A stretch of 34,043 bases of DNA from the IMG/VR virus record IMGVR_UViG_3300021387_000016, one strand, 5' to 3'. This DNA is from an uncultured virus (IMG/VR IMGVR_UViG_3300021387_000016). Lineage: Duplodnaviria > Heunggongvirae > Uroviricota > Caudoviricetes. The notes beneath the pieces were generated by a model, which had not been told where the DNA came from, ran no database searches, and was given only the letters and a program-made list of their open reading frames with translations. Below are positions 6,722 to 34,043 of the stretch, piece after piece. The position numbers and the translations under genes are program-made. Within the stretch, counting starts at the first letter, position 1; every line of letters begins with the position of its first letter.

Positions 6722-6739
6722 TAATCAAGGAGAAAAGAT

Positions 6740-7864: not shown

Positions 7865-7881
7865 AGAAAGGGGGAAAGACT

Positions 7882-9345
7882 ATGAGCCTTGTCATCGGCG
7901 ATAATTTCAGTTTTCAAGGTGCAAAGCCCCTTGATGCGAGGTTGAAATATTCTACAGTTGCAGAAATGAAGGCAGTTGGTGATTCCACTATGTATGATGG
8001 ATGTCTCGCTTATTGTTCTGAGACTGATAAGACATACCAGTGGAAATCAACAAATACAGTAGATGCTACTACAGGCAGATGGAGAGAGTTTTCAAGTGGT
8101 GGTGGTAGTGGCACAGATGAAAATGCTTATCATACAACAGATTCAGCAGAAACAGATATAAGTGATACAGATTATTTCCCATTCTTAGATAGTAATACAC
8201 CTAAGAAGTCTTTGTGGAGCAATATTAAGGCTAAATTAAAGACTTATTTCGATACTCTTTATGACCTTAATAATGACGATATTGTTAAGTATGCCGAATG
8301 TGGAACAGAAGCTTCAATAACCGCTAAAACTGCTAATGTTTCAAGAGGTTCATTTAAGCTCGTTGCAGGTTCTAAGGTTGCAGTAAGATTTTCTTATGCC
8401 AATACTGCTACTTCTCCAACACTAAATATCAATAGTACAGGAGCAAAAGCAATAAAGGCAATTAATTCAAGTGGTTCTTACGTTGAACCTACTAATTGGA
8501 ATAGTAATGATATAGTAACATTTATATATAATGGTTCATATTATATAATGCAACCTTCATTTGGTACATTACCTAGTATCCCTGTAGTTGGAACTATCAA
8601 TCGTAGTGATATATACGATACTACAGAGAAAGTAATTGGTTGTATGACAGATGGTCGTCCTCTGTACCAAAAAACATTTGTAGGAACATCAAATAGTAGT
8701 GGGAATATAACAAGTGTAGGTACTCTATCAAATGCTAGAGTTTATAATATAAAGGGTGTCATAAGTAATACATCTACTACTATGGCAAATTCAACTACAT
8801 CAATTAACATTCCTGTAGGAGCAACTACTACTTCTGGCTCTGCGCTTGATGTTTCAATATTTGCTTATTTTGATACATCTACTATTTATTTAGCTGTAGC
8901 AGATAATGCAAATACTTATAGAAATAAAGGTTATGCAATTACTGTTCAATACACCAAGACTACAGATTCAGCTAATTCCTACAACTATGCTAATGAAAAC
9001 GACTACTCCACATCTGAGAAGATAATAGGAACTTGGATAAATGGAGAAACGCTTTATCAACGTACTTATACAGGAACTTTCCCATCATCTTTTAATAGTA
9101 ATGAAGGAATTATTAACATTGCTACATCATATACATATACTCCTGTTGAAATATTAGGATATGCATATTATAAAGATGGTACAATATATGGTAGTTTACA
9201 AATGCCTTACTATGATGGAACAAATGCAATAGTTCTTCAGACAAATACCTCAACGAAAACTTTAGAAATGTTCTATACAAAAGGAAGTTCAATATCTTAT
9301 CTAAAAAGTAGACCTTACTATGTAACAGTTAAATATATTAAATAA
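7882..9345 (+). CDS. Fibre/receptor-binding-like protein C with two tandem C-terminal repeats
   Basis: GSKVAVRFSYANTATSPTLNINSTGAKAI fibre motif; repeats YDTTEKVIG..DGRPLYQKTF...ITVQYTK and YSTSEKIIGTWINGETLYQRTY...VTVKYIK. Confidence 0.65.
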   Translation: MSLVIGDNFSFQGAKPLDARLKYSTVAEMKAVGDSTMYDGCLAYCSETDKTYQWKSTNTVDATTGRWREFSSGGGSGTDENAYHTTDSAETDISDTDYFPFLDSNTPKKSLWSNIKAKLKTYFDTLYDLNNDDIVKYAECGTEASITAKTANVSRGSFKLVAGSKVAVRFSYANTATSPTLNINSTGAKAIKAINSSGSYVEPTNWNSNDIVTFIYNGSYYIMQPSFGTLPSIPVVGTINRSDIYDTTEKVIGCMTDGRPLYQKTFVGTSNSSGNITSVGTLSNARVYNIKGVISNTSTTMANSTTSINIPVGATTTSGSALDVSIFAYFDTSTIYLAVADNANTYRNKGYAITVQYTKTTDSANSYNYANENDYSTSEKIIGTWINGETLYQRTYTGTFPSSFNSNEGIINIATSYTYTPVEILGYAYYKDGTIYGSLQMPYYDGTNAIVLQTNTSTKTLEMFYTKGSSISYLKSRPYYVTVKYIK

Positions 9346-9346
9346 A

Positions 9347-9433
9347 AGCACTATCCCTATATATATAAAGCTAATACATGGCGAATATAACAGAGGTAAG
9401 ACTTATTGTTTAACAATACAATATACAAAGTAA
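9347..9433 (+). pseudogene. Start-less remnant of an additional fibre C-terminal repeat
   Basis: Reads STIPIYIKLIHGEYNRGKTYCLTIQYTK*, matching the repeat end STIYL...YRNKGYAITVQYTK of the upstream gene. Confidence 0.55.
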
Positions 9434-9509
9434 TATTAAAGGAGTAATAAATGAGTTTACTTACAGAGGAATAGTTCGCAAAAGAAGAACATCAATGTGT
9501 TATAATCCT

Positions 9510-9591
9510 TATGTGGCTAGGCTGACGAGCCGAAAGCACGTTATCGCTACGTGTTGCCACATAGCAATTAGCGAGTTTACGAAAGCGAGGT
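9510..9591 (+). ncRNA. Structured leader/antisense-type RNA, copy 1
   Basis: Closing stem TATGTGGC/GCCACATA; CTAGG..CCGAAAGCA core; loop TCGCTA complementary to TAGCGA (9569) and AGCGA in the RBS (9582-9591); TATAAT at 9501. Confidence 0.6.
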
Positions 9592-9598
9592 AAACAAA

Positions 9599-9775
9599 AT
9601 GATATTACCCTATAACATTTCAGCAACTTATGCTAAAGGTAATTTGTTCATGATTAGCAATAAAGTTTGTAAAGCCATAAAAATAATTGAAATGGGTGAT
9701 GAATTAGTTTTGTTTAATCCTAAAACTCGCAAAGGCAACTATATAGAGGCATACGAAGTTTTTCAAAATAGTTAG
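9599..9775 (+). CDS. 58-aa protein related to the N-domain of 10519 and 31913
   Basis: GAGGT SD; SATYAKGNLFMISNKVCKAIKIIEMGDEL aligns with SQAYTKGTLLYFKNRLCKATQAISNGATL. Confidence 0.6.
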   Translation: MILPYNISATYAKGNLFMISNKVCKAIKIIEMGDELVLFNPKTRKGNYIEAYEVFQNS

Positions 9776-9807
9776 TTCGCAAAAGAAGATTTAATGGAAT
9801 AACTTAA

Positions 9808-9841
9808 AGAGCATCAACTGTCAAAGGTTGGTGCTTTTTTC
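9808..9841 (+). terminator. Terminator with conserved TGTCAAAG loop
   Basis: AGAGCATCAAC-TGTCAAAG-GTTGGTGCTTT plus T-run. Confidence 0.75.
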
Positions 9842-9856
9842 TATTGGAGAAAGCCT

Positions 9857-10516
9857 ATGGTAGAGATATTTAAAGTGCTCGGAACAATTCTAGCTGCAAT
9901 GATAACTACCTTTGGCGGCGGTTATTTTGTGCTAAAGAAGTATCTCCTTGAAAGAGAAGATGCTAAAGATGCGCAAATTATACAGAAGCAGATAGATAAT
10001 TCTATTGCCAAAGTAAAAGAAGAATTGAAAGCAGAGATTGCAAAACAAGTTGAACAAAGCATTAAGGATTGTGGTGAAATTGGAGATAAAGCCATAGCTG
10101 ATGCAGTTCAGGAAGCAAGGCATGATTTTGAAGAAGGTTTGAAGATGCGTGGCGAAGAAGGATTGAAACGGTTTGAAGCCAATTCAAAAGCTATAGATGA
10201 GAACACTGCAATGATAAAGCAGATTCTTACAATCCAGAAGAACTCTACGGAAAAGATTGATAAGATGGCAGATTCTATAACTGCGTTAGCACAAGTGAGC
10301 GAAGCCTGCGCAGAAAGCCAGAGAACCGCTAATTACGACAGACTTTTGATTGTAACGAGCAAGATCATTAAGTCAAAGAGAATGACTATGACCGAGAAAA
10401 CAAATCTTATTCAACTATATGATTCCTGGAAAAAACTACAGGGAAATGACATGAAGATAAAAGTTATGTATGACGAGTGTTTGAAGATTACACCTGTCCT
10501 TGATGAAGGAGTATGA
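9857..10516 (+). CDS. N-terminal TM + coiled-coil protein (holin-like family of Bacillota phages)
   Basis: One TM at the N-terminus; C-terminal YDRL...EK.NL..LYDSWKKLQGN motif resembles proteins usually found next to lysins. Confidence 0.45.
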   Translation: MVEIFKVLGTILAAMITTFGGGYFVLKKYLLEREDAKDAQIIQKQIDNSIAKVKEELKAEIAKQVEQSIKDCGEIGDKAIADAVQEARHDFEEGLKMRGEEGLKRFEANSKAIDENTAMIKQILTIQKNSTEKIDKMADSITALAQVSEACAESQRTANYDRLLIVTSKIIKSKRMTMTEKTNLIQLYDSWKKLQGNDMKIKVMYDECLKITPVLDEGV

Positions 10517-10518
10517 CA

Positions 10519-10821
10519 ATGGCAAATTACAGTGGGCACTACGAAGACTCAAGTGGAAATTTAATACTTCCTATTCCTAGCGGTGGAACAGCTACTATAG
10601 AGCTTGGGAATACTGCAAGCCAGGCATATACAAAGGGAACATTGTTATATTTTAAAAATCGTTTATGCAAGGCTACTCAGGCTATATCAAATGGAGCAAC
10701 GCTGGCTGTTGGGACTAATCTTTCCTACACATCACTTGGAACAGAGTTTTCTTCACATATGGTTGCTTCTAATGGAACAGAGTTTTCGTTTCAAACACTT
10801 ATAAATGGTGGGTATAACTAA
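10519..10821 (+). CDS. Stand-alone paralog of the constant N-domain of the 31913 fibre gene
   Basis: MANYSGHYEDSSGNLIL...TASQAYTKG...NRLCKAT...GTNLS.TS.G.E..SH..ASNG.EF aligns closely with the 31913 N-terminus. Confidence 0.75.
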   Translation: MANYSGHYEDSSGNLILPIPSGGTATIELGNTASQAYTKGTLLYFKNRLCKATQAISNGATLAVGTNLSYTSLGTEFSSHMVASNGTEFSFQTLINGGYN

Positions 10822-10842
10822 AGGAAAGGAGAAATAAACAAG

Positions 10843-11133
10843 ATGAAACTCAGTGATTTTTTGGCAGCGTTAAGAACTAACAACGTTACAGTTACAATCA
10901 ATGATCTTCAGGATAAGCTTGTTTGCAAGATTGATGCAGCTAGTTATTCTGCTCTTTCTGATGATTTGGAAAACAGAACAATTAATCGCTGGAACATTGT
11001 TGGAGCAACTTCTATCATGGTTGTGCTTAATGAGCCGGATAACAGTAATTCTGATTCAGGGAATAACAACTCAGGCAGTGATCCTAGCAATGATTCTGGT
11101 AGCGACTCAGGCAATGACCATAGCGATCCATGA
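10843..11133 (+). CDS. Hypothetical virion protein, paralog of 17397-17600, with S/D/N-rich tail
   Basis: MKLSDFLAAL...VTIND vs MTLQEFLAAL...VTVKD; strong AAGGAG SD. Confidence 0.65.
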   Translation: MKLSDFLAALRTNNVTVTINDLQDKLVCKIDAASYSALSDDLENRTINRWNIVGATSIMVVLNEPDNSNSDSGNNNSGSDPSNDSGSDSGNDHSDP

Positions 11134-11164
11134 TGTCTTTTACTGGGCATAGCAAATTCCTCCG

Positions 11165-11278
11165 AGGTGGCCATGTGTCACAGCATGGTCATCTATTTGG
11201 AATATCTACTCCCATATTTTTGATATTCCCTTCTCATAAGAGAGGCGGTTCTACTGTCACAGGTAGAATCGCTTTTTT
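11165..11278 (+). terminator. Two hairpins with TGTCACAG loops (second is a clear terminator)
   Basis: AGGTGGCCATG-TGTCACAG-CATGGTCATCT and GGCGGTTCTAC-TGTCACAG-GTAGAATCGCT followed by a T-run. Confidence 0.7.
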
Positions 11279-11410
11279 AGCACTTAGAGAAATCTAGGTG
11301 CTTTTTTCATGCCAAGGAAAAGGCATAAGAACCCTGAGAGAACAGTACATCACAACGTTACAGAGAAGTAACGGAACAAAAAACACAAATAGAAAGGTGG
11401 ACAACTAAAT

Positions 11411-12073
11411 ATGAAAAAGAAGAATCTTTGCAACTATCAACCTTCATTTCCGATGAATCTTCAGTTTTTTGCAGATGAGGGCAACACAGCACCAGAACCA
11501 TCTACTAATCCAGAAGGGAATCCAGAGGGAAACCCAGATGATAAGAATGGCGACGAAAATACCCCACCAACAAAGACATATGAAGATGCGATGGCCGAGA
11601 TTGCTGCTGCAAATGCAGAAGCAAAGAAGCTGAAAGCAGAACGTGACGCAGCTCTTAAGAAGTCCGGCGAGTTAACTAAGCAACTCAGAGCAAAAATGAC
11701 TGAGGATGAGCTTAAAACTCAGCAAGACGAGGAAGAGAAAGCAGAGCGTGAAGCTCATATGAAAGAGCTTGAGGCTTATAAGGCTAGTAACGAAGCATTC
11801 AAGCGTTACACGATGCAGGGAATGGATGCTGCACTGGCTGAGAAAGCGGCCAAGGCTGAAATTGAGGGCGATATGGATGCTCTTGCAGCAGTTTTTGCAG
11901 AGCAGAAAAAGAAAGAACTCAAGGAAGCAAAGGAGCAGTGGCTTGGTTCAAGGCCAGAGGCAAATAAGGGAGATGGCGAAGGATCTTCCATGACAAAAGA
12001 AGAGATTTTGGCAATCAAAGATCCAAAAGAACGTCAGGAAGCAATTGCCAGAAATCTCAATCTTTTTGAGTAA
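11411..12073 (+). CDS. Head scaffolding protein
   Basis: MNLQFFA N-terminal motif, acidic linker, long coiled coil, C-terminal MTKEEILAIKDPKERQEAI; directly before the capsid gene. Confidence 0.85.
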   Translation: MKKKNLCNYQPSFPMNLQFFADEGNTAPEPSTNPEGNPEGNPDDKNGDENTPPTKTYEDAMAEIAAANAEAKKLKAERDAALKKSGELTKQLRAKMTEDELKTQQDEEEKAEREAHMKELEAYKASNEAFKRYTMQGMDAALAEKAAKAEIEGDMDALAAVFAEQKKKELKEAKEQWLGSRPEANKGDGEGSSMTKEEILAIKDPKERQEAIARNLNLFE

Positions 12074-12126
12074 GCAAAGACTACAAAGAGTAGTCATACG
12101 CCAAATGGCAGAAAGGAAGAAAAATT

Positions 12127-13248
12127 ATGGCAGCTGAGAAAGGTGTAATTAAGAAAGCCGACCTCGCGAGAGCGAGAGAAGTGGATTTCGTCTATCGTTT
12201 TCAGGATGGAATCAAGAAACTTATGGAAGCATTAGGAGTAACAAGAAAGATTGCAAAACAGGCAGGTACAAACCTGAAGGCTTACAAAGCAACTGGTACT
12301 CTTCTTGACGGACTTGTAGCAGAAGGCGATATCATTCCTCTTTCACACTACAAGACTGTTCCTGTTACTTTTGATGAGATCACAATTAAGAAGTGGAGAA
12401 AAGCTACCACTGTAGAAGCTATCACAGAAAAGGGCTTCGACCAGGCAGTAACACAGACCACAGACGAGATGCTTAAGGATGTTCAGAAGGGCATCAAGAA
12501 GACCTTCTTCAATTTCCTTGCAACTGGTACTGGCCTTGCTTCTGGTGCAACATTCCAAGCAACTATTGCAGCTATTTGGGGACAACTGCAAGTCCTTTAT
12601 GAGGACACAGAAATGCAGGCTGTGTATTTCATGAATCCTCTTGATGCAGCAGATTATCTTGGTTCTGCTCCTATCACCATTCAGGAAGCTTTCGGTATGA
12701 AGTATATTGAAGACTTTATTGGCCTTGGTACTGTTATCTTTAATTCTAACGTTCCAAAGGGAACAATTTATGGTACTGCCAAGGAAAACATTATTCTCTA
12801 TTATATTCCTGTTAACGGTGCTGACATTGGTGAGGTATTTGCATTCACATCTGATGAGACAGGATATGTAGGTATTCATGAGACACCTGATTATGACAAC
12901 ATGACATCCAAGGATACAGTTGTATCCGGTATCGTTCTCTTTGGTGAGAGAATCGATGGTATCGTTGTTGGTACAATCGGTGGATCAATCACTCCTACTG
13001 TTACAACAGACGTTGATACAATCACTGTTCCTGTTGGCGGCGTAGATTCTGTTCATGCAAAGGTTAACCCTGCTGGAACAGCGTATACATGGGCTTCCGC
13101 AGATACAGATGTATTCACTGTTTCTGCTGGACTTAGCAACGCTGACGTTGTTATCACAGGTGTTGCAGCTGGTACAGCTAACCTTACATGCACAATCGGC
13201 GGTTCTGTTGTTAAGACTGTTGCTGTTACTGTTTCAGCTAGTGCTTAA
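12127..13248 (+). CDS. Major capsid protein with C-terminal Ig-like (Big_2-type) domain
   Basis: VAEGDIIPLS...KKWRKATTVEAI..GFDQAV..T motifs; last ~85 aa (V.PAGT..TWASADT.V.TV...ITGVAAGTANLT) look Ig-like. Confidence 0.88.
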   Translation: MAAEKGVIKKADLARAREVDFVYRFQDGIKKLMEALGVTRKIAKQAGTNLKAYKATGTLLDGLVAEGDIIPLSHYKTVPVTFDEITIKKWRKATTVEAITEKGFDQAVTQTTDEMLKDVQKGIKKTFFNFLATGTGLASGATFQATIAAIWGQLQVLYEDTEMQAVYFMNPLDAADYLGSAPITIQEAFGMKYIEDFIGLGTVIFNSNVPKGTIYGTAKENIILYYIPVNGADIGEVFAFTSDETGYVGIHETPDYDNMTSKDTVVSGIVLFGERIDGIVVGTIGGSITPTVTTDVDTITVPVGGVDSVHAKVNPAGTAYTWASADTDVFTVSAGLSNADVVITGVAAGTANLTCTIGGSVVKTVAVTVSASA

Positions 13249-15399: not shown

Positions 15400-15462
15400 T
15401 GAGTACTTGTTTTATAATCAACAAATAGAGCATAATTGGGTTATGCAAAAGGAGTTGATTAT

Positions 15463-16326
15463 ATGGCAAATATCATTGATTTAACCGGACAACGTTTTGG
15501 AAGGTTAGTTGTAATACAAAAAGGAAAACCACATATTACATCTGGCGGTGCGTATATCACAACATGGTACTGCAAATGTGATTGTGGAAACTACACAACA
15601 GTTCAAGCACCAAAGCTAAGGAAGGGGCATACTACTTCATGTGGTTGCCTTATTAAAGAGAATAAGGGACATGCCTATGAGGATCTTGTCGGTCAGAAAT
15701 TTAATCGACTCACTGTAATCAAGTTTATTCCTCCGAGCGAGAGAACTGTTCGAGGTTACAACTGGCTATGCCAATGTGAATGTGGCAAAATGATTAAGGC
15801 AAACGCAAATAAGCTGAAATCAGGAATGCAACAGTCATGTGGTTGTCTGAAAGAAGAAATGAAATATAACATTGGAAATGTCAATAAGAAGTACAAATAC
15901 TCAAACAAGAGACTTTACGGCGTTTATAAAGCAATGCTGAATAGATGCTACAATCCAAATGGTCGTGAGTATAAAAACTATGGTGGCAGAGGAATTACTG
16001 TTTGTGATGAATGGCTAGGCGAATATGGCTATGATGCTTTTGCAGAATGGGCAATTAGTACTGGCTATGATATCAACGCCGAACATGGTGATTGTACAAT
16101 TGATAGAAACGATGTTAATAAAGGCTATTCGCCTGATAATTGTTCATGGAAAACGAATAAGCAACAACAAAGTAACCGAAGAGATACCGTTATTCTTTCA
16201 TACAATGGTGAAAAGCATAGTATGAAAGAGTGGTCAGAAATACTGGGTATTTCTTATTCGAAGATTATTTACCATGTACATAAAGGCAAAACGCTTGAAC
16301 AAATAATAGATATGAATGGCAAATAA
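15463..16326 (+). CDS. Free-standing HNH-type homing endonuclease
   Basis: Two DLxGQxFxRLxV...WxCxCxCG...SCGC repeats, then RLY.VY.AM..RCYNP...YKNYGGRGITVCDEW...TIDRNDVNKGYSPDNCSW; AAGGAG SD before ATG 15463. Confidence 0.85.
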   Translation: MANIIDLTGQRFGRLVVIQKGKPHITSGGAYITTWYCKCDCGNYTTVQAPKLRKGHTTSCGCLIKENKGHAYEDLVGQKFNRLTVIKFIPPSERTVRGYNWLCQCECGKMIKANANKLKSGMQQSCGCLKEEMKYNIGNVNKKYKYSNKRLYGVYKAMLNRCYNPNGREYKNYGGRGITVCDEWLGEYGYDAFAEWAISTGYDINAEHGDCTIDRNDVNKGYSPDNCSWKTNKQQQSNRRDTVILSYNGEKHSMKEWSEILGISYSKIIYHVHKGKTLEQIIDMNGK

Positions 16327-18447: not shown

Positions 18448-21400
18448 ATGCCTACAAATCTTGATACTCTACAAATTGAAATAAAGAGTTCAGCCACAGA
18501 TGCATCGAGTGCAATTAAGAATCTCGAATCAGCCCTTAAAAACTTAAACAAGCAGCTTGACCTTAAGGATGGCACAAAACTAGTAACAATACTTAATACA
18601 CTCTCTGGTTCTGCTAACGATTTTTCTACAAAAATAAATAACATAACCGGAAGCGGTTTTAATAAAGTTACTAAAGGAGCTGAAAATGCACAAAAAGCTA
18701 TTCAGCAACTAAAGAAAGAAGGAGAGGATCTTCAAAAAACACTAGAAGGTTTTCATACTCCTGATTTAGACAAAGCGTTTGGCCTTGCGTTTTCCAAGAA
18801 GAGAATTTTAGGTGAAGATGCTGCAAAAGGCAACCCCAAAATTACGGAAACCGGATTTATTATTCCAAATTGGGATGACTCTGCGCCGCAAAGAGTAGCT
18901 GAAGCTGTACAAAATATTACCCAAAAGGCGAAAGATCTTAACGAAGAAATGGATGCTTTCCATTTCCCTGATTTTGGTAATGAATTAAAAGAAGCAGATA
19001 CTTTTGGAAAAATCGCTAACCAGGCACAAAATGCAAGTAATTCTATAGGTGATGCCGTCGAAAATATCCGTAAATTTAAAGCACTGATTTCTGGCATGGA
19101 GAGCGGAAAAATTAAGTTTAACGAAGAAGATTACGCTCGATATATAAAAGGCTTAAACGAAGCTGAAACTGCTGTGAAAAATTATAAGCAGGCCCTAACG
19201 GAAAAGATGCCTGAACCAGAACCGCTTAAATCTAAAACACTTATCGGTGATTTTCTGCCCCAATTACTTGTATTAGGAGAAAAAATAGAAGAAATATCCG
19301 GTAAATTTAATAATCTGGCTGATAAAGGAGTTTCTTTATTTAAAAAATTAATTACTCCGCTTAAAATGGCTGCGAGCGAATATGTTGAGAAGTTTGAGCA
19401 TATGAAAGCTTCGGTAGAAGGCTTTAAACAGCACTTTGAGAAGAGTCTTACTAAAATGTCGCAATTTTGGAAACGAACAATGCGTACATTTACATTTATG
19501 ATTATCCGTAAAGCTTTTACGGCTGTCATTAAAGAAGTTGGAAATGCAATACAGTCTCTGGCCATGTATTCAAATGCAATGGGTACAGCATTTAATACCG
19601 ACTTGTCAAACATGGTTGCTGATTTTCAATATGTTGGACGTGCTATTGTAAGTGCTTTTGCTCCGTTACTTAGCATTGTTGGGCCTATCATTGATGCTAT
19701 AACCAGCAAAATTGCAACCCTGCTTACATATATCGGAATGTTATTTTCACTTCTTGGTGGAAAGACAACATTTACAAAGCCTAAAAAGAACGTAGATAAC
19801 TACGCAGAATCACTTGATAATGCCAGTAAGTCAGCCAAGAATCTTACGATGGGTATTGACGAGCTGAACATCATTTCTGAAAACAAGAGTAGTGGTGGAA
19901 GTTCGAAGCCTTTTGATGGATGGGAAGATGCATGGGAAGAAATGCAGATACCACAATGGCTTAAGGATTTGTTTGATTGGCTTAAAAATCTGTTTAAGAG
20001 ATTCTTTGATCCACTTAAGGAAGCATGGAATAGAGCAAAACAGTATCTTATTGATGGTTTTAAGACCATGATGGACTCTATTCTTCGTCTGTTGTGGCAT
20101 ATGCTTGATGACTTCCTTACAATGTGGAATCAGGAAAAAACTATCCGCATGTTTGAGATGATGCTTAGAATTGTGGGTGACTTAATGAGAGTTGTCCGCA
20201 ATTTGGCTAATCAGTTCGATAAGGCTTGGCAAAAGGGTAAAGTAGGTTTACGCATATTTGAAAACTTAAGAGATATTCTTGCAACAATTGTGGATCATGT
20301 AAGAAATGTTTCGTATTACATGATTGGTTGGGCTGATAGCATGAACTTTAGCCCATTGCTTGAATCCTTTGAACTCCTGACAAGAAAGATGGTTAAACTT
20401 GCAGATTTCCTTGGTGGAATATTTGAAGACATCATGATCGAAGGTGTTCTTAAGTACATTAAATTCCTTATAGAAGATGCTATCCCACACCTTCAGGAAA
20501 CACTTGCTGAGATAATAGATACCTTTAATTTCAATGCGCTTAGAGAGAAGTTGAGACCACTTTGGTCAGCTATTGAGGAAGTACTTGAGCAAATTCACAC
20601 AGGTGTCACAAACACTATTGGAAACCTTGGAAAAGAAATCGCACGTTTTACCAATTCGGAAGAATTTACTGATTTTCTTCAAAGAATTGTGGATATATTA
20701 AATCTCATAACCGCTGAGAGAGTCGAAAAGATTCTGACCGGAATAGGTAAAGGGATACTTGCTATTGCCAAATCTATTATCAAGTTTATTAATAGTGAGC
20801 CTTTCATGAAATTCCTACAGGCTATTGCGGATTGGATTGATAATCATTCAGTAGACCAGATTGCAGGAATTCTTGAAAAAATAGCTAATGCGATTCTGCT
20901 ATTCAAATTTGGAGCATTTGCAACCGAAAAGATTGCTGGCTTCCTTAAGTTTTTTGCGGCAATTAAAGCACTTCAAGACCTAGCAACAATAGCTAGTGGA
21001 TTTAAAGAGTTAGGTGCTGGTATGGAAGGAGCTGCATCAGGAGCAGGCGCACTTGCAGTTGCAGGCGAAGGTCTTTTGATTGTCTTTGGCGAAGTTGTTG
21101 GTATCCTAGCTCTTAAGGGAGAGTTTGACCTTATTAAGGATGCCACTTATAGATTATCTGAGGGGGTTGAAACTTTATCAGATAAATTTAAAGTGCTCGC
21201 GGAAATCCTTGGTGGGCTGCACTTAGGAAATTTTGCAAGTAATATTCTTGGGCCAGTAGGAATATTGGCAAGTAAGCTCCTTGAACTTTCAGGTATTATG
21301 AATGGACTTAGTGCATCCAACTTTGAATCAGTTATGGATGCTGTTCTAACAAAGGGCGATACCACTGTAGCAATGGTCAAGGATTGGTTTTCTGGTGTAA

Positions 21401-24240
21401 CCGCAGATGTTCAGCAGAATGTTCAGACCTGGACGGATACAATTAGAAACCTTACTCAAGATGAAGGTGATCTTGCAAATTATTCACAGACTCTTGAAAC
21501 TCTTGAATCTGCTTTCCGTGGAACAACGGATATGACTGTATTATCTTCGAAGATTCTTACACAGAAGTATCAGGATATGACTACTGCAATAGATAATTAT
21601 GTAATGCAGAGTACTGATGCATTAAAGAAAGAACTGGAAGACAACAGAGAATATTATGAGTCAAAAGGCAAGAATGTTGATGACATGATTGCCAAAATTG
21701 ATAAACAAGCTGAAGAAGAAATGCAGATTTATCAAAAGACTCAAGAAGCAGTTAATAACTCAGCCAAAGCATATGAAGATGCAGTTGAGAAATATGGTTA
21801 TGGTTCAAAGAAAGCAGAAGAGGCTTATAAGACTTATGAAGATGCAGTAACTAAACACATTGATGCTATTAAGGACTATCGTACTGAAACTGAAAAGATT
21901 GATACAACATATGCTTCTCAACAGATTGAGAAACTAGGAAAGAGCCTTGATCTTAGTCAATATTCAAATATGGAAGATGCTGCATCTGACATTAAAGGTG
22001 CACTTGAAGAAATTAGAGTCACATATGAAAAAGAGCTATCTTCTGTAAATTCAACTGTTGAAGAAAAAATGGCCTTTCTTAAAGAGCAGTTTGAGAAAGG
22101 ACGCATTGACCAGGAAGAGTACGATATAGGTCTTAAAGCTCTTGCAGAAAAAGCAGAAGAAGATGGAAATACTCTTACTGAAGCATACCAAGAAGCCCTT
22201 GATTTATTTGACCAACAGCTTGCGGCTAAGTTAGAAGATGTTAAGACTAATGCTGAAGCAGAATGGGAAGAAGCTAATCCAATTAAGCGTTTCTTTATGG
22301 GAAGCAGTAAAGATGCTTATGTTGCTTCTCAAATGCAGACATATGTAGATGAAATGCTTGGTGAAAGTGGACTTGCTGGTGAATTGCAAGCCGCTTTTGA
22401 AAAATTGCCAGGTGATATTGAACCTGTAGCTTCACAGTCAATGTCTCAGATAGTTGAAGATACAAGTTCAGTATTTAATACTTGGGATCAGGTAATAAAT
22501 GCAGATAGCCTTAAAGAAGCGGTAGGCAATGTATTTAATAGTGCAGGAGAAAAGGTTTCTGAATGGGGCGCTGAAAAGAGAGAATCTATTTCTACATGGG
22601 TTGAAGAAACAAAGACGAGTCTTACCGAAAAGCTCGGACTTATGAGAGATAGTGTCGAACAATCATTTGATAGCCTTCCTGAAGCGATTGGTTACGCTCT
22701 AGGTTTTGTTTCTGGAAAGCTAATAGAATGGGGTGCTGAACTAATTGCCTGGGCTGAAACAAATATTCCTCTGTTTGTAGATAGCGTTGTAGAGTTCTTT
22801 GCTACACTTCCTGGTAAAATTTGGGAAAAACTGGTAGAAGTTAAAGCAAAGTTTGATGAGTGGAAAACTGAGCTTATTACCTGGGTAACAACTGAAATAC
22901 CTTTGATAGTAGATGTAATTCTTAAGTTCTTTGGTGAAATTCCTACCAAACTATATAACTTAGGAACAGATATCATAAATGGTCTCTTAAATGGTATCAA
23001 AGATGCTTGGGAAGCCTTGAAAGGTGGTGTAAAAGAATTTTGCGACGGATTCTTACAAGGTTTCAAAGATGCTTTAGGTATTGCTTCCCCTTCAAAAGAA
23101 GCTGAGACAATCGGAGATTATGTTATTGAAGGTTTGTTTTTACCATTTACTAAAGATCAGACATCTACATTAAAGGTATTTGTAAATGCATTCTTGGATG
23201 TATTTAGGGTTAATTTAAGCCCCGACAAATTTACTGTATATGGTAACAATGTTATTCAAGGGTTAATACAACCGCTAACTAACTCTTCAAGCCAGTTTGT
23301 AACAGCTGTTAATCAGATTTTTGTCGTGATAACAGAAACAATACTTACAAACATTCAAACCCTTGGTGTAGCTTTAACTGAAGCTCTTACAACATTTGTT
23401 GCAACATATATTTTACCTTTCTTTGACTTGGAGATGTGGCAGCCTATTCTTGATAACCTCATGAATGCAGTATTTATTCCTAACTTTGAACTGTTTAGGA
23501 CTTGGTTTACTGAGTCAATGACAGTTTGGTGGGAAGAAGATGTATTATTCTGGTTCACTAATGAAAAATGGGATGGAGATATCTTCACACCACTTGCTGA
23601 TAACATTCATGAGCATTGGAATACATTCTCAAGTTGGTGGGATACCACAATGAATGCATGGTGGAACAACCAGGTAGTCCCATGGTTTGCTAAAGCTAAA
23701 TGGTTAGAGCAATTCAAACATATTCTTGAGGCTGCGAAAGAAACTTTTGAAGAAATCAAAAGGATAATAACTGAGCAGATAAATGAAGCTCAACAGGCAG
23801 TTTCAGATGCTTGTGAAACAATGAAAGCATCTATAGCGGAAGTAATAACAGCTATTGGTGAACTGATGGATGCTCTCTCAGGACTTGAAGGACTTGGTGG
23901 ACTTGAAGGTGGCAAATTCACAATTGCATTTGGTGGTGGTGCTCCTAAATTTGCCGAAGGTGGTTTCCCAACAAGAGGTTCTCTTTTCTGGGCAGGGGAA
24001 CAAGGCCCAGAACTTTTGGGTTCTATTGGTGGACATACTGCGGTAGCATCTAATGATGAAATCACAGGAATTGCTAATGCGGTGTATGCAACAGGTAATA
24101 CTGAGGCAGAACTTCTTGGTCAGCTTATCACTGTTACAAGGATGATGCTTGATAAAGACCCTGTAGTAATTTCCGATAAGGAAATAGCAAGGATGAATCT
24201 TAGCGGACAGAACAAGTTAGGAATGAGTATTATAACATAA
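18448..24240 (+). CDS. Tape measure protein
   Basis: 1930 aa, helical, LDTLQIEIKS N-terminus, MGIDELNII, periodic W/F repeats, C-terminal PKFAEGGFPTRGSLFWAGEQGPEL. Confidence 0.93.
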   Translation: MPTNLDTLQIEIKSSATDASSAIKNLESALKNLNKQLDLKDGTKLVTILNTLSGSANDFSTKINNITGSGFNKVTKGAENAQKAIQQLKKEGEDLQKTLEGFHTPDLDKAFGLAFSKKRILGEDAAKGNPKITETGFIIPNWDDSAPQRVAEAVQNITQKAKDLNEEMDAFHFPDFGNELKEADTFGKIANQAQNASNSIGDAVENIRKFKALISGMESGKIKFNEEDYARYIKGLNEAETAVKNYKQALTEKMPEPEPLKSKTLIGDFLPQLLVLGEKIEEISGKFNNLADKGVSLFKKLITPLKMAASEYVEKFEHMKASVEGFKQHFEKSLTKMSQFWKRTMRTFTFMIIRKAFTAVIKEVGNAIQSLAMYSNAMGTAFNTDLSNMVADFQYVGRAIVSAFAPLLSIVGPIIDAITSKIATLLTYIGMLFSLLGGKTTFTKPKKNVDNYAESLDNASKSAKNLTMGIDELNIISENKSSGGSSKPFDGWEDAWEEMQIPQWLKDLFDWLKNLFKRFFDPLKEAWNRAKQYLIDGFKTMMDSILRLLWHMLDDFLTMWNQEKTIRMFEMMLRIVGDLMRVVRNLANQFDKAWQKGKVGLRIFENLRDILATIVDHVRNVSYYMIGWADSMNFSPLLESFELLTRKMVKLADFLGGIFEDIMIEGVLKYIKFLIEDAIPHLQETLAEIIDTFNFNALREKLRPLWSAIEEVLEQIHTGVTNTIGNLGKEIARFTNSEEFTDFLQRIVDILNLITAERVEKILTGIGKGILAIAKSIIKFINSEPFMKFLQAIADWIDNHSVDQIAGILEKIANAILLFKFGAFATEKIAGFLKFFAAIKALQDLATIASGFKELGAGMEGAASGAGALAVAGEGLLIVFGEVVGILALKGEFDLIKDATYRLSEGVETLSDKFKVLAEILGGLHLGNFASNILGPVGILASKLLELSGIMNGLSASNFESVMDAVLTKGDTTVAMVKDWFSGVTADVQQNVQTWTDTIRNLTQDEGDLANYSQTLETLESAFRGTTDMTVLSSKILTQKYQDMTTAIDNYVMQSTDALKKELEDNREYYESKGKNVDDMIAKIDKQAEEEMQIYQKTQEAVNNSAKAYEDAVEKYGYGSKKAEEAYKTYEDAVTKHIDAIKDYRTETEKIDTTYASQQIEKLGKSLDLSQYSNMEDAASDIKGALEEIRVTYEKELSSVNSTVEEKMAFLKEQFEKGRIDQEEYDIGLKALAEKAEEDGNTLTEAYQEALDLFDQQLAAKLEDVKTNAEAEWEEANPIKRFFMGSSKDAYVASQMQTYVDEMLGESGLAGELQAAFEKLPGDIEPVASQSMSQIVEDTSSVFNTWDQVINADSLKEAVGNVFNSAGEKVSEWGAEKRESISTWVEETKTSLTEKLGLMRDSVEQSFDSLPEAIGYALGFVSGKLIEWGAELIAWAETNIPLFVDSVVEFFATLPGKIWEKLVEVKAKFDEWKTELITWVTTEIPLIVDVILKFFGEIPTKLYNLGTDIINGLLNGIKDAWEALKGGVKEFCDGFLQGFKDALGIASPSKEAETIGDYVIEGLFLPFTKDQTSTLKVFVNAFLDVFRVNLSPDKFTVYGNNVIQGLIQPLTNSSSQFVTAVNQIFVVITETILTNIQTLGVALTEALTTFVATYILPFFDLEMWQPILDNLMNAVFIPNFELFRTWFTESMTVWWEEDVLFWFTNEKWDGDIFTPLADNIHEHWNTFSSWWDTTMNAWWNNQVVPWFAKAKWLEQFKHILEAAKETFEEIKRIITEQINEAQQAVSDACETMKASIAEVITAIGELMDALSGLEGLGGLEGGKFTIAFGGGAPKFAEGGFPTRGSLFWAGEQGPELLGSIGGHTAVASNDEITGIANAVYATGNTEAELLGQLITVTRMMLDKDPVVISDKEIARMNLSGQNKLGMSIIT

Positions 24241-30192: not shown

Positions 30193-30936
30193 ATGGCAAA
30201 TGAAGCTACTATTAAAAACTTCATAGCAGAAATAGCACCATGCGCACAAAAAGCATATAAAGCTCTTGGTAAGGTTAAGCCTTCAGTATGTATTGGAATG
30301 GCTTGTGTGGAATCGGCCTATGGAACTTCTAAGATAATGCGACAACACCATGCATTTCTAGGTCATAAGGTTGGAAGTGGAAGAACCGCCCTTAAGTATT
30401 GGGATGGTTCTTTTTTTGTGGCTAAAACCAAGGAAGAGTACATAATTGGGCAACACACAGTCATCAAGGACGCTTTCAGGAGCTTCAAAAACACTGAGCA
30501 ATGTATCTTTAATTTCTACGAACTTCTTAATACAAGCTTGTATTCAAGAGTTAAGGCAGAATCCGATTACAAAACTCAGATGAAACAAATTAAGGCATGT
30601 GGCTACATGACAAGCAGTACTGAAGTATCCAGTGTCTTGAAGCTAATTGAGAAATACCAGCTATTCAAATATGACTCTGATGAGATCATTGATAAGCCGA
30701 ACCAGATCAAGATAAATCCATACAAGCGAACTAGCAACCTAATCAAACGTGGCATGAAGGGCGAGGATGTCTTTTGGCTACAGTGGGAATTAAATAGGCA
30801 TGGAGCAAGTCTTGTTACGGATGGGGATTTTGGCAAAAAAACTTTGACGGCTGTAATTTCTTTTCAGCAAAAACACTTTCCATTGAAAGTTGATGGCGTG
30901 GTAGGCCCAAAAACTATTGCTGAACTAGAGAAATAA
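30193..30936 (+). CDS. Endolysin (GH73 glucosaminidase-like + peptidoglycan-binding domain)
   Basis: PSV.I..A..ESAYGTS...T.EEY...FRSF...GYMT catalytic region; GEDV.WLQ..LN..G...DGDFG.KT..AV..FQ....LKVDGVVGPKT PG-binding domain. Confidence 0.88.
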   Translation: MANEATIKNFIAEIAPCAQKAYKALGKVKPSVCIGMACVESAYGTSKIMRQHHAFLGHKVGSGRTALKYWDGSFFVAKTKEEYIIGQHTVIKDAFRSFKNTEQCIFNFYELLNTSLYSRVKAESDYKTQMKQIKACGYMTSSTEVSSVLKLIEKYQLFKYDSDEIIDKPNQIKINPYKRTSNLIKRGMKGEDVFWLQWELNRHGASLVTDGDFGKKTLTAVISFQQKHFPLKVDGVVGPKTIAELEK

Positions 30937-31066: not shown

Positions 31067-31327
31067 ATGAGTGATATGGAAAACGAGAAGATCAGTAACG
31101 AGACCGCGCATGAGATTATTGTTGCGGTTATGGAAAGACAGGTAAAGAGATTGTTTATTCTTTGCCTAGTAATTTTTGCAGCTTTAGTTATAAGCAACGC
31201 TGCATGGATTTACTATGAGAACAGTTTCCAAGATGTTGTAGTGACAGAGAACACTCAGGATGGTGAAGGAACTAATATCATGAGTGGTGGAGATGTAAAC
31301 TATGGCGCAGAGAAGCAAGACAATTAA
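31067..31327 (+). CDS. Single-TM membrane protein
   Basis: GAGGT SD; one TM (LFILCLVIFAALVISNAAWIYY) followed by an acidic tail. Confidence 0.65.
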   Translation: MSDMENEKISNETAHEIIVAVMERQVKRLFILCLVIFAALVISNAAWIYYENSFQDVVVTENTQDGEGTNIMSGGDVNYGAEKQDN

Positions 31328-31427
31328 AACAAGAGTAAAGAAAAATGGTCTTCAAAATTCCGCAGGATATAGGATTTGCAAAAACTGCGGTGGAGATGGT
31401 TTGGTAAGAAAAAGAAAGAAAAAGTGA
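31302..31427 (+). CDS. 41-aa basic peptide with CxxCxGxG (not in ORF track)
   Basis: GGAG SD; MAQRSKTIKTRVKKNGLQNSAGYRICKNCGGDGLVRKRKKK. Confidence 0.55.
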   Translation: MAQRSKTIKTRVKKNGLQNSAGYRICKNCGGDGLVRKRKKK

Positions 31428-31548
31428 TCTGACTTATTATTACATTTTGATGTATTGTAGCCAAGCTTAATCGTATTTTTAAACACAGAAAAGTATTTCT
31501 AGGCAAAATGAAGCCCTTGATGTTAATTCATCGGGGTTTTCTTGCTAG

Positions 31549-31662
31549 TTGACTAACCTTTATGATTGTTATATTATAAGGGTGCGGAAACGCAAACAAA
31601 AGTTATAAAGAGTTCTATGACAAAACGAAACCCCCGATGTAGGCGCATCGAGGGTTTCTTGC
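31549..31662 (+). ncRNA. Antitoxin RNA of a par/Fst-like type I TA, with promoter and terminator
   Basis: TTGACT-17-TATTAT (31549-31577); carries AAAAGTTATAAAGAGTTCTATGAC, repeated at 31764-31787 over the toxin start; terminator hairpin 31627-31659. Confidence 0.72.
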
Positions 31663-31697
31663 TGTTTGGAGTCAGCTACACTCAGGCTATGGCCGTG

Positions 31698-31784
31698 TTA
31701 ATCTTCTCTGTCTAGCCATTTGCAAATGTAGTAGGCTACTATACTTGCCATGACAGAGATTAAAAAAGTTATAAATAGCTCTAT
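31698..31784 (-). CDS. Fst/Ldr-family type I toxin (28 aa, apparent ATA start)
   Basis: AGAAAGGAGGTG SD; (M)ELFITFLISVMASIVAYYICKWLDRED with TM and C-terminal KWLD. Confidence 0.8.
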   Translation of the reverse strand: MELFITFLISVMASIVAYYICKWLDRED

Positions 31785-31859
31785 GACTACCTCACCTCCT
31801 TTCTACCGGAGGCACACGGCCCAAATAGCATAACACAAACAGAATAATAATAAAAGAAC

Positions 31860-31890
31860 AGGAAATCTCGAAACGAGGTTTCCTTTTTTA
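31860..31890 (+). terminator. Intrinsic terminator
   Basis: AGGAAATCTC-GAAAC-GAGGTTTCCT plus T-run. Confidence 0.6.
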
Positions 31891-31912
31891 TTGTCTGAAA
31901 GGAGAAAACACT

Positions 31913-32533
31913 ATGGCAACATATAATGGACATAATGAAGATTCAAGCGGAAATATCTTACTGAGTATCGGTAATGGCATGACTGCAACAGTAGAAACAG
32001 GAACAACAGCAAGCCAGGCATACACAAAAGGATCTTATCTGTTTTTTAATAACAGACTTTGTAAGGCTACTTCTGCAATTTCAAGAGGTGCTTCATTGGC
32101 CATAGGAACAAATCTTTCACAGACATCAATAGGTCAGGAAATAACAAGCCACCTTAGAGCGTCCAATGGAGATGAGTTTTATTTTGACTACAAAGATTCA
32201 AAGCCAGGCTACTATCCATCTGCATCTAAGGTAGCTTCACAATTCGTCCCATTTGGAGGAACATGGAGTGCCTTCAGCCCGGTAGGAAGAACAGCAACAG
32301 TGCTAGGAACAAACTTTACTGTTGGAAAGTATTATGTTTTTAGATTATTTGGCTCATATGTTTTTGATGGTACATTTGTAGGAGCTAATGTAATATCCTC
32401 ATCAGGCAACATAGGTTCTTTGGGCCAGGGATATACACGTTCATATATTCTTCAAGCAACATCTACTACAATAACGTCCTCTGTCAGTTTTAATAACAAT
32501 CCAGATGGCGCACTATCTCTAGGTACATTTTAG
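31913..32533 (+). CDS. Expressed fibre/adhesin gene of a putative shufflon (constant N ~115 aa + variable C ~90 aa)
   Basis: AAAGGAG SD; constant part ends FVPF-GGT at site ATTTGGAGGAAC (32251-32262); followed by start-less cassettes. Confidence 0.72.
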   Translation: MATYNGHNEDSSGNILLSIGNGMTATVETGTTASQAYTKGSYLFFNNRLCKATSAISRGASLAIGTNLSQTSIGQEITSHLRASNGDEFYFDYKDSKPGYYPSASKVASQFVPFGGTWSAFSPVGRTATVLGTNFTVGKYYVFRLFGSYVFDGTFVGANVISSSGNIGSLGQGYTRSYILQATSTTITSSVSFNNNPDGALSLGTF

Positions 32534-32850
32534 ACGAACAGCATCGACAGGATCTATTGCTGAAGTACCAACTTCAACAGCATATGTAGTTAATCTTGGG
32601 TATAAGCCTAAAGTAGTTTTGCTAAAAATATACTACAGTACCAATGTTGATTATATGTTGTTTACATACAATGAAACTTTTTTTACCTGGATATTTTTCA
32701 TACGTACAATATTATGCAGGGGGTTGGGGTGGCGGGGGTACTCCTCTAGGAACTTCCGCTATATGCATACTTGATATAACGTCAACAGGATTTACTATAA
32801 AGTCAGTATATGGTGGGATGTATGGGACATATATAGCTTACAAAGATTAA
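32528..32850 (+). pseudogene. Silent C-terminal cassette 1 (one extra T in T7 at 32678-32684)
   Basis: Starts at TTTTAGACGAAC; RTASTGSIAEVPTSTAYVVNLGYKPKVVLLK...YNET then, after removing one T, FLPGYFSYVQYY...ITSTGFTIK...YIAYKD*. Confidence 0.62.
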
Positions 32851-32898
32851 AGCAAATCGTAATTTTCAAAATGTCAAAAGTTCAACTTGATTTAAGTG

Positions 32899-33181
32899 TT
32901 ATATCCCTGTAGCATATACGGTTACTGGATAACTATAACTGGCAAGATTAATGGTTTCTCCGACATTATAATCTCGGTCTATGACTATTGAACCCGTAGC
33001 CTCAGCTGCTCGGATATGACAGCGAGCAATTGTTGTAACTTGTGTTTGAAAATAACTCAAGAAATTCCCTGATTGTCCACTCACTTTTACTGAATAAGAT
33101 GAACCATTAAAACTTATACCATACGCCCATATTGTTCCAGCATAACCACTTGCAGTTTCAAAAACAGTTGTTCGCTTGAAT
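32899..33181 (-). other. Silent C-terminal cassette 2
   Basis: Minus-strand site ATTCAAGCGAAC; open frame RTTVFETASGYAG...PVTVYATGI*; no SD or start. Confidence 0.68.
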
Positions 33182-33187
33182 AAGACA

Positions 33188-33485
33188 TTATTTGGATATA
33201 GTTAATGTAGCAATCAAACCATTGTAATATGTGATGTATTTATAATTCTGAATGTTGTTTGTTACATTGACAGATAGCTGTGTTAGTGTTTGGAAATCGT
33301 TTGTACCATACAATGCGTTTCTACCACTACTACCTGCCATGTTGAATGTTTTATATCCATCAACATTCCATAATATTGAATCATAATATGATGTCATTGT
33401 AATGCTAGTAGCATTGCCAACTACTGCAACATTATCTCCTTGGCGGAAGTAATCGCCTGGGTTTCCGAAGACAGTTCGTTGAAAT
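33188..33485 (-). other. Silent C-terminal cassette 3
   Basis: Minus-strand site ATTTCAACGAAC; open frame RTVFGNPGDYFRQ...ATLTISK*. Confidence 0.68.
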
Positions 33486-33493
33486 AATACCGA

Positions 33494-33839
33494 TTACCAC
33501 GATATAGTAACCGAATAAACAGGAGCTTGATAACCTACTGCACAATACCTTATATAATCGTAATTTAGATTGGTGAGTGTTCTGTTCCAACCACTACTCA
33601 AATCTGTTATGACTCCATCTTTAAATCCTTGCATACTTCCAGCTACCGCGTTGGCAATACTAAAAGTACTAGTAAAATTTTTCAGATCAGCTGTATAAAA
33701 CAGAAGAGAAAATGAACCATAGCTATCTGTTCCAGACACCGCAACTCCATTAGCAAACGATCCAATGGTATCTATAACAGATGGTTTCTCATATAAGTAT
33801 TGATTAGATTTCAGCAATGCCACGCCTGTTCCTTAAGAA
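33494..33839 (-). other. Silent C-terminal cassette 4
   Basis: Minus-strand site TTCTTAAGGAAC (in-frame TAA just before GGA ACA); GTGVALLKSNQYLYE...YSVTISW*. Confidence 0.65.
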
Positions 33840-33848
33840 CAACCGCTT

Positions 33849-34043
33849 TTAATCGTCTTGTTCTTGTAAACTACATGCTGTTGGATTCATATGTGAATAA
33901 GTAAGAGTAGATGCAGTTGCCAAGATAAGAACTGCGTTCTGTCTATACACTCCACCATCTGAAGTACCAATGCACTTAGCTAAAATAGTTGCACCACTTG
34001 AAATTGTAAACTCAATATATCCAGTGCTAGCCCATATCAAATA
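33849..34043 (-). other. Silent C-terminal cassette 5 (truncated by window edge)
   Basis: Open to the window end; GATILA...LILATASTLT resembles GANVIS...YILQATSTTIT of the expressed C-terminus. Confidence 0.55.

Follow-up and report, generated by a model that had tools for sequence, protein, structure and literature searches.

Hin and Gin are serine invertases that use two-fold symmetric sites; sites of the Hin/Gin type are 26-bp dyads in which two inverted ~12-bp half-sites surround a 2-bp core, a Fis-bound recombinational enhancer also belongs to these systems, and Min has six crossover sites. The R64/IncI shufflon is driven by Rci, a tyrosine recombinase that acts on sfx sites, and its target is pilV, a conjugative pilus adhesin. 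Invertible phage tail-fiber ends are described for Min (p15B), Gin (Mu), Cin (P1), Hin, and Pin, with several crossover sites in Min (PMC6109161). The same paper (Mavrich et al. 2018) presents the Rin shufflon of Bifidobacterium prophages, a siphovirus system from a Gram-positive gut host with a tyrosine recombinase and five Rv tips, in which a constant Rc gene is followed by tandem start-less Rv tips headed by an asymmetric 11-bp repeat and then by the recombinase (PMC6109161). Three other sources report that R64/IncI sites are asymmetric with one conserved arm (PMC11852207), that in a BV01-like Phocaeicola phage a recombinase flanks cassettes overlapping the end of a tail-fiber gene, with directional 10-bp motifs that carry extensions (PMC13596623), and that phage tail genes are among the targets named in a survey of programmed inversions (PMC9881135). 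Here, we analyzed a 34,043-nucleotide stretch of DNA (the window) from an uncultured virus of the Caudoviricetes (IMG/VR IMGVR_UViG_3300021387_000016), which ends in a fiber-like gene followed by start-less cassettes. We interpret this locus, with a probability of about 0.8, as a shufflon, in which multiple inversions exchange the C-terminal tip of a fiber-like phage protein among stored cassettes. The phage is a siphovirus that probably infects Butyrivibrio-like rumen bacteria.

The window was matched at 100% identity by L001, from a viral collection, and by the metagenome contig L017 (0 mismatches over 11,131 / 14,482 compared bases); these two records are the same sequence and thus do not provide independent support. 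Both continue beyond the window end, and L017 (L017 position + 21912 = window-equivalent position) carries the minus-strand cassettes m1-m13 (L017 10987-15187), nine of which (m5-m13) lie wholly outside the window. The full array consists of the expressed gene, one plus-strand and 13 minus-strand start-less cassettes, and a recombinase gene 3.4 kb past the window end. The features are as follows, with site scores (in bits) from the weight matrix described below.

31900..31915, plus strand: ribosome-binding site and start (AGGAG at 31900-31904, ATG at 31913), the sole Shine-Dalgarno (SD) sequence with ATG among the 15 units
31913..32533, plus strand: expressed fiber-like gene, 206 aa
31913..32260, plus strand: constant N-terminal domain, residues 1-116, ending in FVPFGG
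32246..32262, plus strand: crossover site of the expressed gene, GTCCCATTTGGAGGAAC, coding for V-P-F-G-G-T, 15.6 bits
32260-32261, plus strand: proposed crossover dinucleotide AA in the expressed-gene site
32261..32533, plus strand: variable cassette now expressed, 90 aa and stop
32523..32539, plus strand: p1 site, GTACATTTTAGACGAAC, 18.0 bits, overlapping the TAG stop of the expressed gene
32538..32850, plus strand: silent cassette p1, in two reading frames with the break at a T7 run (32678-32684)
32899..33171, minus strand: silent cassette m1, 90 aa and stop
33170..33186, minus strand: m1 site, GTCTTATTCAAGCGAAC, 19.5 bits
33188..33475, minus strand: silent cassette m2, 95 aa and stop
33474..33490, minus strand: m2 site, GTATTATTTCAACGAAC, 24.4 bits, in agreement with the consensus
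33494..33829, minus strand: silent cassette m3, 111 aa and stop
33828..33844, minus strand: m3 site, GGTTGTTCTTAAGGAAC, 12.6 bits
33849..34043, minus strand: silent cassette m4, of which the window contains only the 3' part, the m4 site lying beyond the window end
L017 15491-16336: serine recombinase, 281 aa, intact, after the array end at 15187

The 15 tips, of 78-119 aa, all start with Thr and are mutually dissimilar, the sole alignable pair being m5 and m9 (34% identity). Thirteen of the 14 silent cassettes are open frames of 90-119 codons without a start codon of their own; on the minus strand of the window, the stop-to-stop frames span 32899-33201, 33188-33493, 33494-33832, and 33849-34043 (the last one cut). 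Among the 14 silent cassettes, m1 and m5 had no in-frame start in a span reaching 10 codons upstream and 30 codons downstream of the site, and the only SD-like signal was a weak AAGGAA before a GTG in m3. The T7 homopolymer of p1, identical in L001 and L017 (one sequence, as noted), could reflect a dead cassette, an assembly error, or slippage.

Each silent cassette is headed by an asymmetric 17-mer, GTnTTATTTnAnnGAAC, and alignment of 13 silent sites gave the consensus GTATnATTTnAAC-GAAC. We derived a weight matrix from these 13 silent L017 sites, with the expressed junction outside the training set. This junction scored 15.6 bits, compared to 11.4 bits for the next best match outside the array in 40,197 bases searched on both strands. 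The matrix also recovered the m11 site and marked the cassette boundaries in the independent loci L023, L029, L021, and L002 and in plasmid pCY360 of the cultured bacterium Butyrivibrio proteoclasticus B316 (NC_014389.1, here L071); it gave no match of at least 9 bits in the array-free locus L028. Conservation over 52 sites from six loci, selected by use of the GAAC core and not of the right arm, was 98% for G1, 94% for T2, 81% for A6, 88% for T7, 85% for T9, and 94% for G14, and the right arm (positions 18-37) carried at most 0.4 bit per position. With its left arm and core conserved and such a right arm, the site is one-armed. We sought two-fold symmetry around GAAC and around the site center and found none, G14/C17 being the only symmetric pair. 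Read in frame, the site encodes V-L-F-Q-R-T in the silent copies and V-P-F-G-G-T in the gene. Many silent sites contain a stop at or just before position 13-15 (e.g., TGA-AC, TAA-CGA-AC), which, given that expressed proteins keep FVPFGG, argues that the crossover occurs at or after position 14.

Most of this agrees with the original prediction, which was made from the window alone. It had described one gene with a strong SD followed by tightly packed cassettes, one on the plus strand and four on the minus strand, and all were found in place; the five sites that it quoted were correct, with GAAC in the frame xGA-ACx at each, and the GT 11 nt before GAAC was present in four of the five, the exception being m3 (GGTTGTTCTTAAGGAAC). 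A resemblance among the sites beyond chance was borne out by the matrix scores, and the cassettes and recombinase sought beyond 34043 proved to be nine further cassettes and a serine recombinase at +3.4 kb. The proposed lack of an SD held for 13 of the 14 silent cassettes and not for m3 with its weak AAGGAA before GTG, and the plus-strand cassette is present, yet as two frames split at 32678-32684 instead of one. The description of the sites as very degenerate, with 4 invariant bp, is replaced by that of an asymmetric 17-nt arm and core common to the sites (GTnTTATTTnAnnGAAC).

A word-indexed search yielded 104 homologs of the constant domain, 53-100% identical in that region and nearly all in singleton clusters. 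The N-terminal domain is retained in them, and divergence sets in immediately behind FVPFGG[T/S]; the junction motif was present in 85 of the 104, and the 97 usable C-termini formed 91 clusters at 50% identity. At the DNA level, the constant-region homology ended at L017 10347-10351 (window 32259-32263), within or just after GGAAC, in 12 of 14 close loci, the exceptions being L028 and L031, which lack the junction. L026 and L027 were 97% identical up to the junction and unrelated beyond it. In both of these loci the constant gene is tandemly duplicated (L026 1389-2525, L027 1649-2665); the first copy ends after 114 aa (...STFTAF), the second is complete with a tip, and the short form corresponds to the 14-member cluster P0090.

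The central dinucleotide of the site was uniform within each locus and varied between loci. It was AA in the window, L023, L029, L021, L002, and the first pCY360 locus, TA in all three sites of L025, and AG in three sites of the second pCY360 locus. L026 and L027 have TT at their expressed junctions, as do, by reading of the sites, three silent L026 sites. The overlap dinucleotide of a serine recombinase would be expected to behave in this way, and the two central bases may well represent it. The differences between loci account for the residue that follows the junction motif, Thr (A-C-x) in 59 homologs and Ser in 23. In addition, the plus-strand sites that head cassettes precede the minus-strand sites in all five loci that have both orientations, as listed here.

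L017: 2 plus-strand sites, 13 minus-strand sites
L023: 8 plus-strand sites, 6 minus-strand sites
L029: 1 plus-strand site, 4 minus-strand sites
L021: 3 plus-strand sites, 2 minus-strand sites
L071 (pCY360): 4 plus-strand sites, 6 minus-strand sites

This order survives any inversion between a plus and a minus site but would be lost if cassettes were inserted in either orientation. Two sites of L021 (2304-2340 on the plus strand and 3756-3720 on the minus strand) also share a 13-codon identical left flank, ISIMDFYVLFCGT, in inverted orientation, which is longer than the 17-nt site.

The gene behind the array encodes a small serine recombinase that carries an insertion and extends into a C-terminal tail. 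It matched Pfam PF00239 (Resolvase) at 8e-23 (81.6 bits, cut-off 23.3) and PHROG 125 ("DNA invertase") at 5e-36. The YARVS nucleophile motif and SRxxR align with Bin3 and Tn3 resolvase (GYARVST/SRFSRN compared to GYARVSS/DRLGRN of Bin3), and residues 157-232 align with residues 121-195 of Bin3, which places a helix-turn-helix at the C-terminus, behind the E-helix. The best solved relatives in the PDB were Bin3 (2.4e-8), Sin, and Tn3 resolvase, with E values of 2e-8 to 2e-7, followed at 3.1e-4 by Gin (4m6f). From the array to the contig end, neither L017 nor L023 showed an open reading frame (ORF) for a tyrosine recombinase. Among 70 loci, the recombinase occurred only in L017, L023, L026, and L029, which are the four array loci with the far end on the contig; in L028, which has the same gene neighborhood, the next phage gene lies directly behind the constant gene, with no cassettes and no recombinase. 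A 51-codon membrane-type ORF lies between the array and the recombinase in L017. GTDB species genomes contained no close relative of the recombinase, and GenBank phages gave only three 43%-identical matches, from human fecal contigs, of which the one inspected (L072) was without a cassette array.

Related phages and pCY360 provided evidence for cassette exchange at the site. Residues 1-117 of the protein P0030 are 95% identical to the constant part of L023, and its residues 117-230 are 94% identical (107/114) to a silent minus-strand cassette of the same locus (L023 5359-5018), the join falling at the Thr of the site. Thus, a cassette that is silent in L023 is expressed in a relative. Similarity to expressed tips was also seen for two more silent L023 cassettes (P0019, 67%; P0011, 53%), and m13 resembles the P0005 tip (40%). 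None of the silent cassettes of the window array was found expressed elsewhere, a scan of viral contigs with P0030 revealed no new locus, and the variable part of P0005, when used as the query of a word-based search, retrieved two proteins only. On plasmid pCY360, next to a recombinase of 89% identity, lie copies of m10 (99.7% identical in nucleotides) and m9 (98.6%), both 100% identical at the amino acid level. Compared to L017, the two stand in swapped order, each cassette moves with the following left arm, and the homology breaks at the core; identical cassettes have been re-assorted at the core between replicons. A goat-gut contig from run X6, which belongs to a study other than that of X1, matched the array over 359 nt with no differences, the match ending exactly at the last base of the m10 GAAC with unrelated sequence beyond. 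The X1/X21 sample contained m4 at 97% identity with other flanks.

The variable ~90 residues are probably a fiber-tip beta-sandwich that binds the host surface, as judged from the modeling of one cassette. The AlphaFold2 model of m13 had a predicted local distance difference test (pLDDT) score of 88.7, and its residues 1-105, the one tip compared, matched residues 338-455 of phage K gp144 with Z 8.2 and a root-mean-square deviation of 3.1 Å over 96/105 residues. A monocin side fiber (Z 7.6) and the tip of T7 gp17 (Z 6.7) followed, and the next matches, non-tip domains, reached at most 5.8. The modeled fold argues strongly that m13 is a receptor-binding tip; the remaining cassettes may be of the same kind, and the protein may be part of the virion and influence host range. 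A profile of the m13 family collected 3921 representatives at E ≤ 0.001, some located at the C-terminus of fiber-like repeat proteins or beside discoidin domains. Domains of the m13 type (P0107-P0255) often form ~130-aa proteins starting MA[FYW][YF]R.GGG or occur as 2-5 tandem copies, and in Pfam they gave only a sub-threshold match, to PF23624 (ORF68_C). Pfam, PHROGs, and NCBIfam held nothing for the expressed protein or the cassettes. Leads from the ESM Atlas (viral hypothetical proteins, pectate-lyase tailspikes, Mtd_N, and CBM_5_12) fell below the score bar and were set aside.

In L004 and L005, sequence relatives of the constant domain form the end of 749-aa virion proteins; in L003, such a relative adjoins tail-fiber genes. 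The domain also occurs alone (~101 aa, ...LIDGVYN) after tail-fiber genes in more distant phages (L003 9998-10303, L030 6912-7217, L031 3-269), which have no variable part and no array. Neither the locus at the DNA level nor the constant domain at the protein level had a match among GenBank phages, and GTDB species genomes gave no relative of the constant gene.

In the mechanism that we propose, only the 206-aa gene is translated, as a constant part of 116 residues ending in FVPFGG plus a variable tip, and the 14 alternative tips downstream are promoterless and start-less, each with its site in the same frame as the expressed junction. The 281-aa serine recombinase would bring the plus-strand site of the expressed gene together with any minus-strand site, cleave GAAC at its central AA, and invert the intervening DNA, so as to join the constant part up to GGA to a new tip from ACx (Thr). 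Because each cassette stop lies in or just before the next left arm, the unit that is shuffled would comprise a cassette body and the left arm that follows it. Through repeated inversions, the plus sites would all stay ahead of the minus sites, and any tip could reach the expressed position. Such inversion would be reversible within one genome, with the exact cut position as given above.

The system works like Min or Rin; it has neither the site of the Hin family nor the tyrosine recombinase. As in Min, Gin, and Cin, a serine recombinase lies beside an invertible region and a constant 5' fiber part is joined to alternative 3' ends, and, as in Min, several crossover sites give many isomers. The recombinase is longer than those of the Hin subfamily (281 aa compared to ~190 aa) and in the PDB search closer to Bin3, Sin, and Tn3 resolvase than to Gin, and its PHROG 125 match is to "DNA invertase"; the site, with one 14-nt arm and a core, is asymmetric across the 52 sites, unlike a Hin-family dyad. 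Compared to Min, there are 15 tips, only the ~100-aa tip is swapped with no chaperone gene, and the locus follows the lysis genes; the host would be a Gram-positive rumen bacterium, unlike the hosts of Min and Gin. Rin shares the order of a constant gene, start-less and mutually dissimilar tips with a short asymmetric repeat, and a recombinase last, whereas its enzyme is a tyrosine recombinase, its tips number five compared to 15, its site sequences are unrelated, and it lies in the tail module after the tape-measure gene instead of after lysis. The likeness to R64 lies in the multiple inversions, the C-terminal segments of a surface-recognition protein, and the one-armed sites; here a serine enzyme acts on a phage protein, whereas Rci is a tyrosine recombinase with a pilus adhesin as target. 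Of the two marks of the Rci and Rin shufflons, a tyrosine invertase and a short asymmetric repeat, only the repeat was found. The BV01-like system has three cassettes and six variants compared to 15 tips, another host phylum, and an unrelated site, TGGGAGAACT. A further likeness is to Mpi, the master serine invertase of Bacteroides fragilis: the C-terminal part of the NCBIfam Mpi model (NF009949) matched residues 153-240, the C-terminal half of the recombinase, at E 7.6e-12 with 45.3 bits, well short of the family cut-off of 272. Whereas coding cassettes are concerned here, Mpi acts on promoters, which it flips at dispersed loci. We take the Mpi inverted repeats to have ACGAACGT-like cores that resemble CGAAC.

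The tip swapping by multi-cassette inversion put forward in the original prediction is thus supported by the anatomy and the relatives, and the comparison of related phages delivered the expected fusion of a silent cassette (from L023) to the constant domain in P0030. The suggestion of an undescribed system stands in part: the kind of system is already known, also beyond the Mu, P1, and R64 systems that the prediction named (Min, Rin, and the BV01-like phage), whereas its recombinase, site, and cassette family were not found described. Our literature search, the coverage of which leaves out most subscription journals, found no paper on this recombinase/site/cassette family or on pCY360 inversions.

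Several observations weigh against the shufflon interpretation. No inversion junction was found within one population, the assembled contigs of X1, the only run with the locus, showing one main arrangement at a depth of ~130, and the P0030 cassette is presumed from its sequence to have reached the expressed position by inversion. Sites of at least 9 bits at L023 7227(+), L071 8566(-), and L025 1726(-) break the orientation rule and head no cassette ORF; we take them as chance or decayed sites. Only one arm of the site is conserved, unlike the two-fold symmetric sites of Hin and Gin, which makes binding by a dimer hard to explain. One cassette, p1, is frameshifted, and the 206-aa gene sits past the lysis genes, directly behind a terminator-like hairpin. 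Finally, the constant domain gave nothing in Foldseek at E ≤ 0.001 and a best VIA match of Z 5.9 over 50 residues, and its model hints only weakly at a role in the fiber. That model (residues ~28-115, pLDDT 87-93) has weak structural neighbors in the tail fiber of phage 7-7-1 (Z 5.9) and in chitin-binding-type domains.

An unlikely alternative is that cassettes move mainly between genomes, or by excision and re-insertion in the manner of integrons or gene conversion, the array being a store that changes on an evolutionary time scale rather than a switch. Identical cassettes with different neighbors in different replicons and samples are what it predicts, the arrays of related phages have few cassettes in common, and inversion within a population was not seen: X1 contained, besides its main arrangement, low-depth pieces from related strains, and no strand-changing joint was found in the assembled contigs of four runs, one of which (X2) gave no match. 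Yet the strict order of plus sites before minus sites in five loci fits shuffling by inversion only, most silent tips lie on the opposite strand and can be expressed there via inversion only, and the recombinase is intact and always adjacent. Exchange between genomes is also disfavored by the 17-nt length of the site, which is too short for efficient homologous recombination.

Less likely still is a fossil array, in which the recombinase would now serve integration or resolution and the C-termini would vary by ordinary modular fiber evolution. The frameshift in p1 would fit, as would the L018 contig, which seems to have no array behind the gene, and the large size of the recombinase family (766 matches at E ≤ 0.001). 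The start-less frames, however, are open in 13 of the 14 silent cassettes, which implies selection through expression elsewhere; the core dinucleotide is uniform per locus and different across loci; and the recombinase co-occurs with arrays, both being absent from L028. That the minus-strand ORFs are independent small genes with their own starts is hardly credible, for even though gene callers name such pCY360 ORFs hypothetical proteins and m3 has its weak AAGGAA before GTG, m1 and m5 have no in-frame start near the site, no other SD was found, the frames begin right at the sites, and in P0030 the constant domain runs in frame into the cassette that is silent in L023.

The sister shufflon of pCY360 occupies positions 6362-12837. 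One gene encodes a 907-aa protein that is anchored in the membrane at its N-terminus and contains a coiled coil and fiber-like repeats, and the site GTACCATCTGGAGGAAC lies 113 codons before its end. Behind the gene there are three plus-strand and six minus-strand cassettes (m9 and m10 included), annotated as hypothetical proteins, and then the recombinase. No homolog of the phage constant domain was found on pCY360, and the 907-aa protein is unrelated to that domain. A second locus on the plasmid (L071 13585-21690) contains an 808-aa paralog with the junction site GTCAGTTCTAGTGGAGC, two further plus-strand sites ending in GAGC, m9-like minus-strand cassettes, and two more recombinase genes at 20111-21690. 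A joint reading of the phage and plasmid loci, which we hold only tentatively and at somewhat less than even odds, is that they belong to an undescribed serine-recombinase shufflon family with a one-armed 14-nt site and a free 2-bp core, portable between genes and drawing on a tip pool shared by phage and plasmid. Portability would follow from the V-P-x-G-G-T site and the recombinase type serving unrelated 206-aa and 907-aa genes, and the shared pool is suggested by m9 and m10, 100% identical between phage and pCY360.

The window as a whole is the late region of a siphovirus, in which PHROGs assigned a terminase, a portal, a major head protein, tail proteins, and a tape measure of 1930 aa. An endolysin gene lies at 30193-30936. 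A candidate holin adjoins the endolysin, as judged from its position and size, its only match being a PHROG of unknown function. Two terminator-like hairpins lie upstream of the 31913-32533 gene. Between them, a small hydrophobic ORF on the minus strand (31692-31790; ...VVIELFITFLISVMASIVAYYICKWLDRED, preceded by GGAGGTGAGG) looks like a type I toxin-like peptide with no evident start codon; there is a partial copy near 31598-31621, and its ending, ICKWLDRED, has a conserved counterpart ahead of the gene in L018. Rfam gave no match above the gathering score in 31250-34043. HNH endonuclease genes (PHROG 374) occur in the structural region of the window (15436-16326, 1.6e-80) and in L028 (4107-4943, 1.3e-60), where the constant gene follows immediately.

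A store of 15 tips would be among the largest reported for phages, those of the systems compared here (Min, Rin, and the BV01-like phage) numbering three to six. The 91 tip clusters among 97 sequences in public metagenomes indicate that the presumed host-recognition end of this phage group changes at an exceptional rate. The recombinase appears to act on a one-armed site with a selectable core, which is unusual for serine recombinases, and could serve as a multiplex inversion tool; such tools are today limited to Rci-type tyrosine enzymes (PMC11852207). Since B. proteoclasticus B316, a cultured and harmless inhabitant of the rumen, has a sister locus, the mechanism is directly testable. If the joint reading of phage and plasmid is true, the system would act like an integron for receptor-binding tips, common to the phage and a host replicon.

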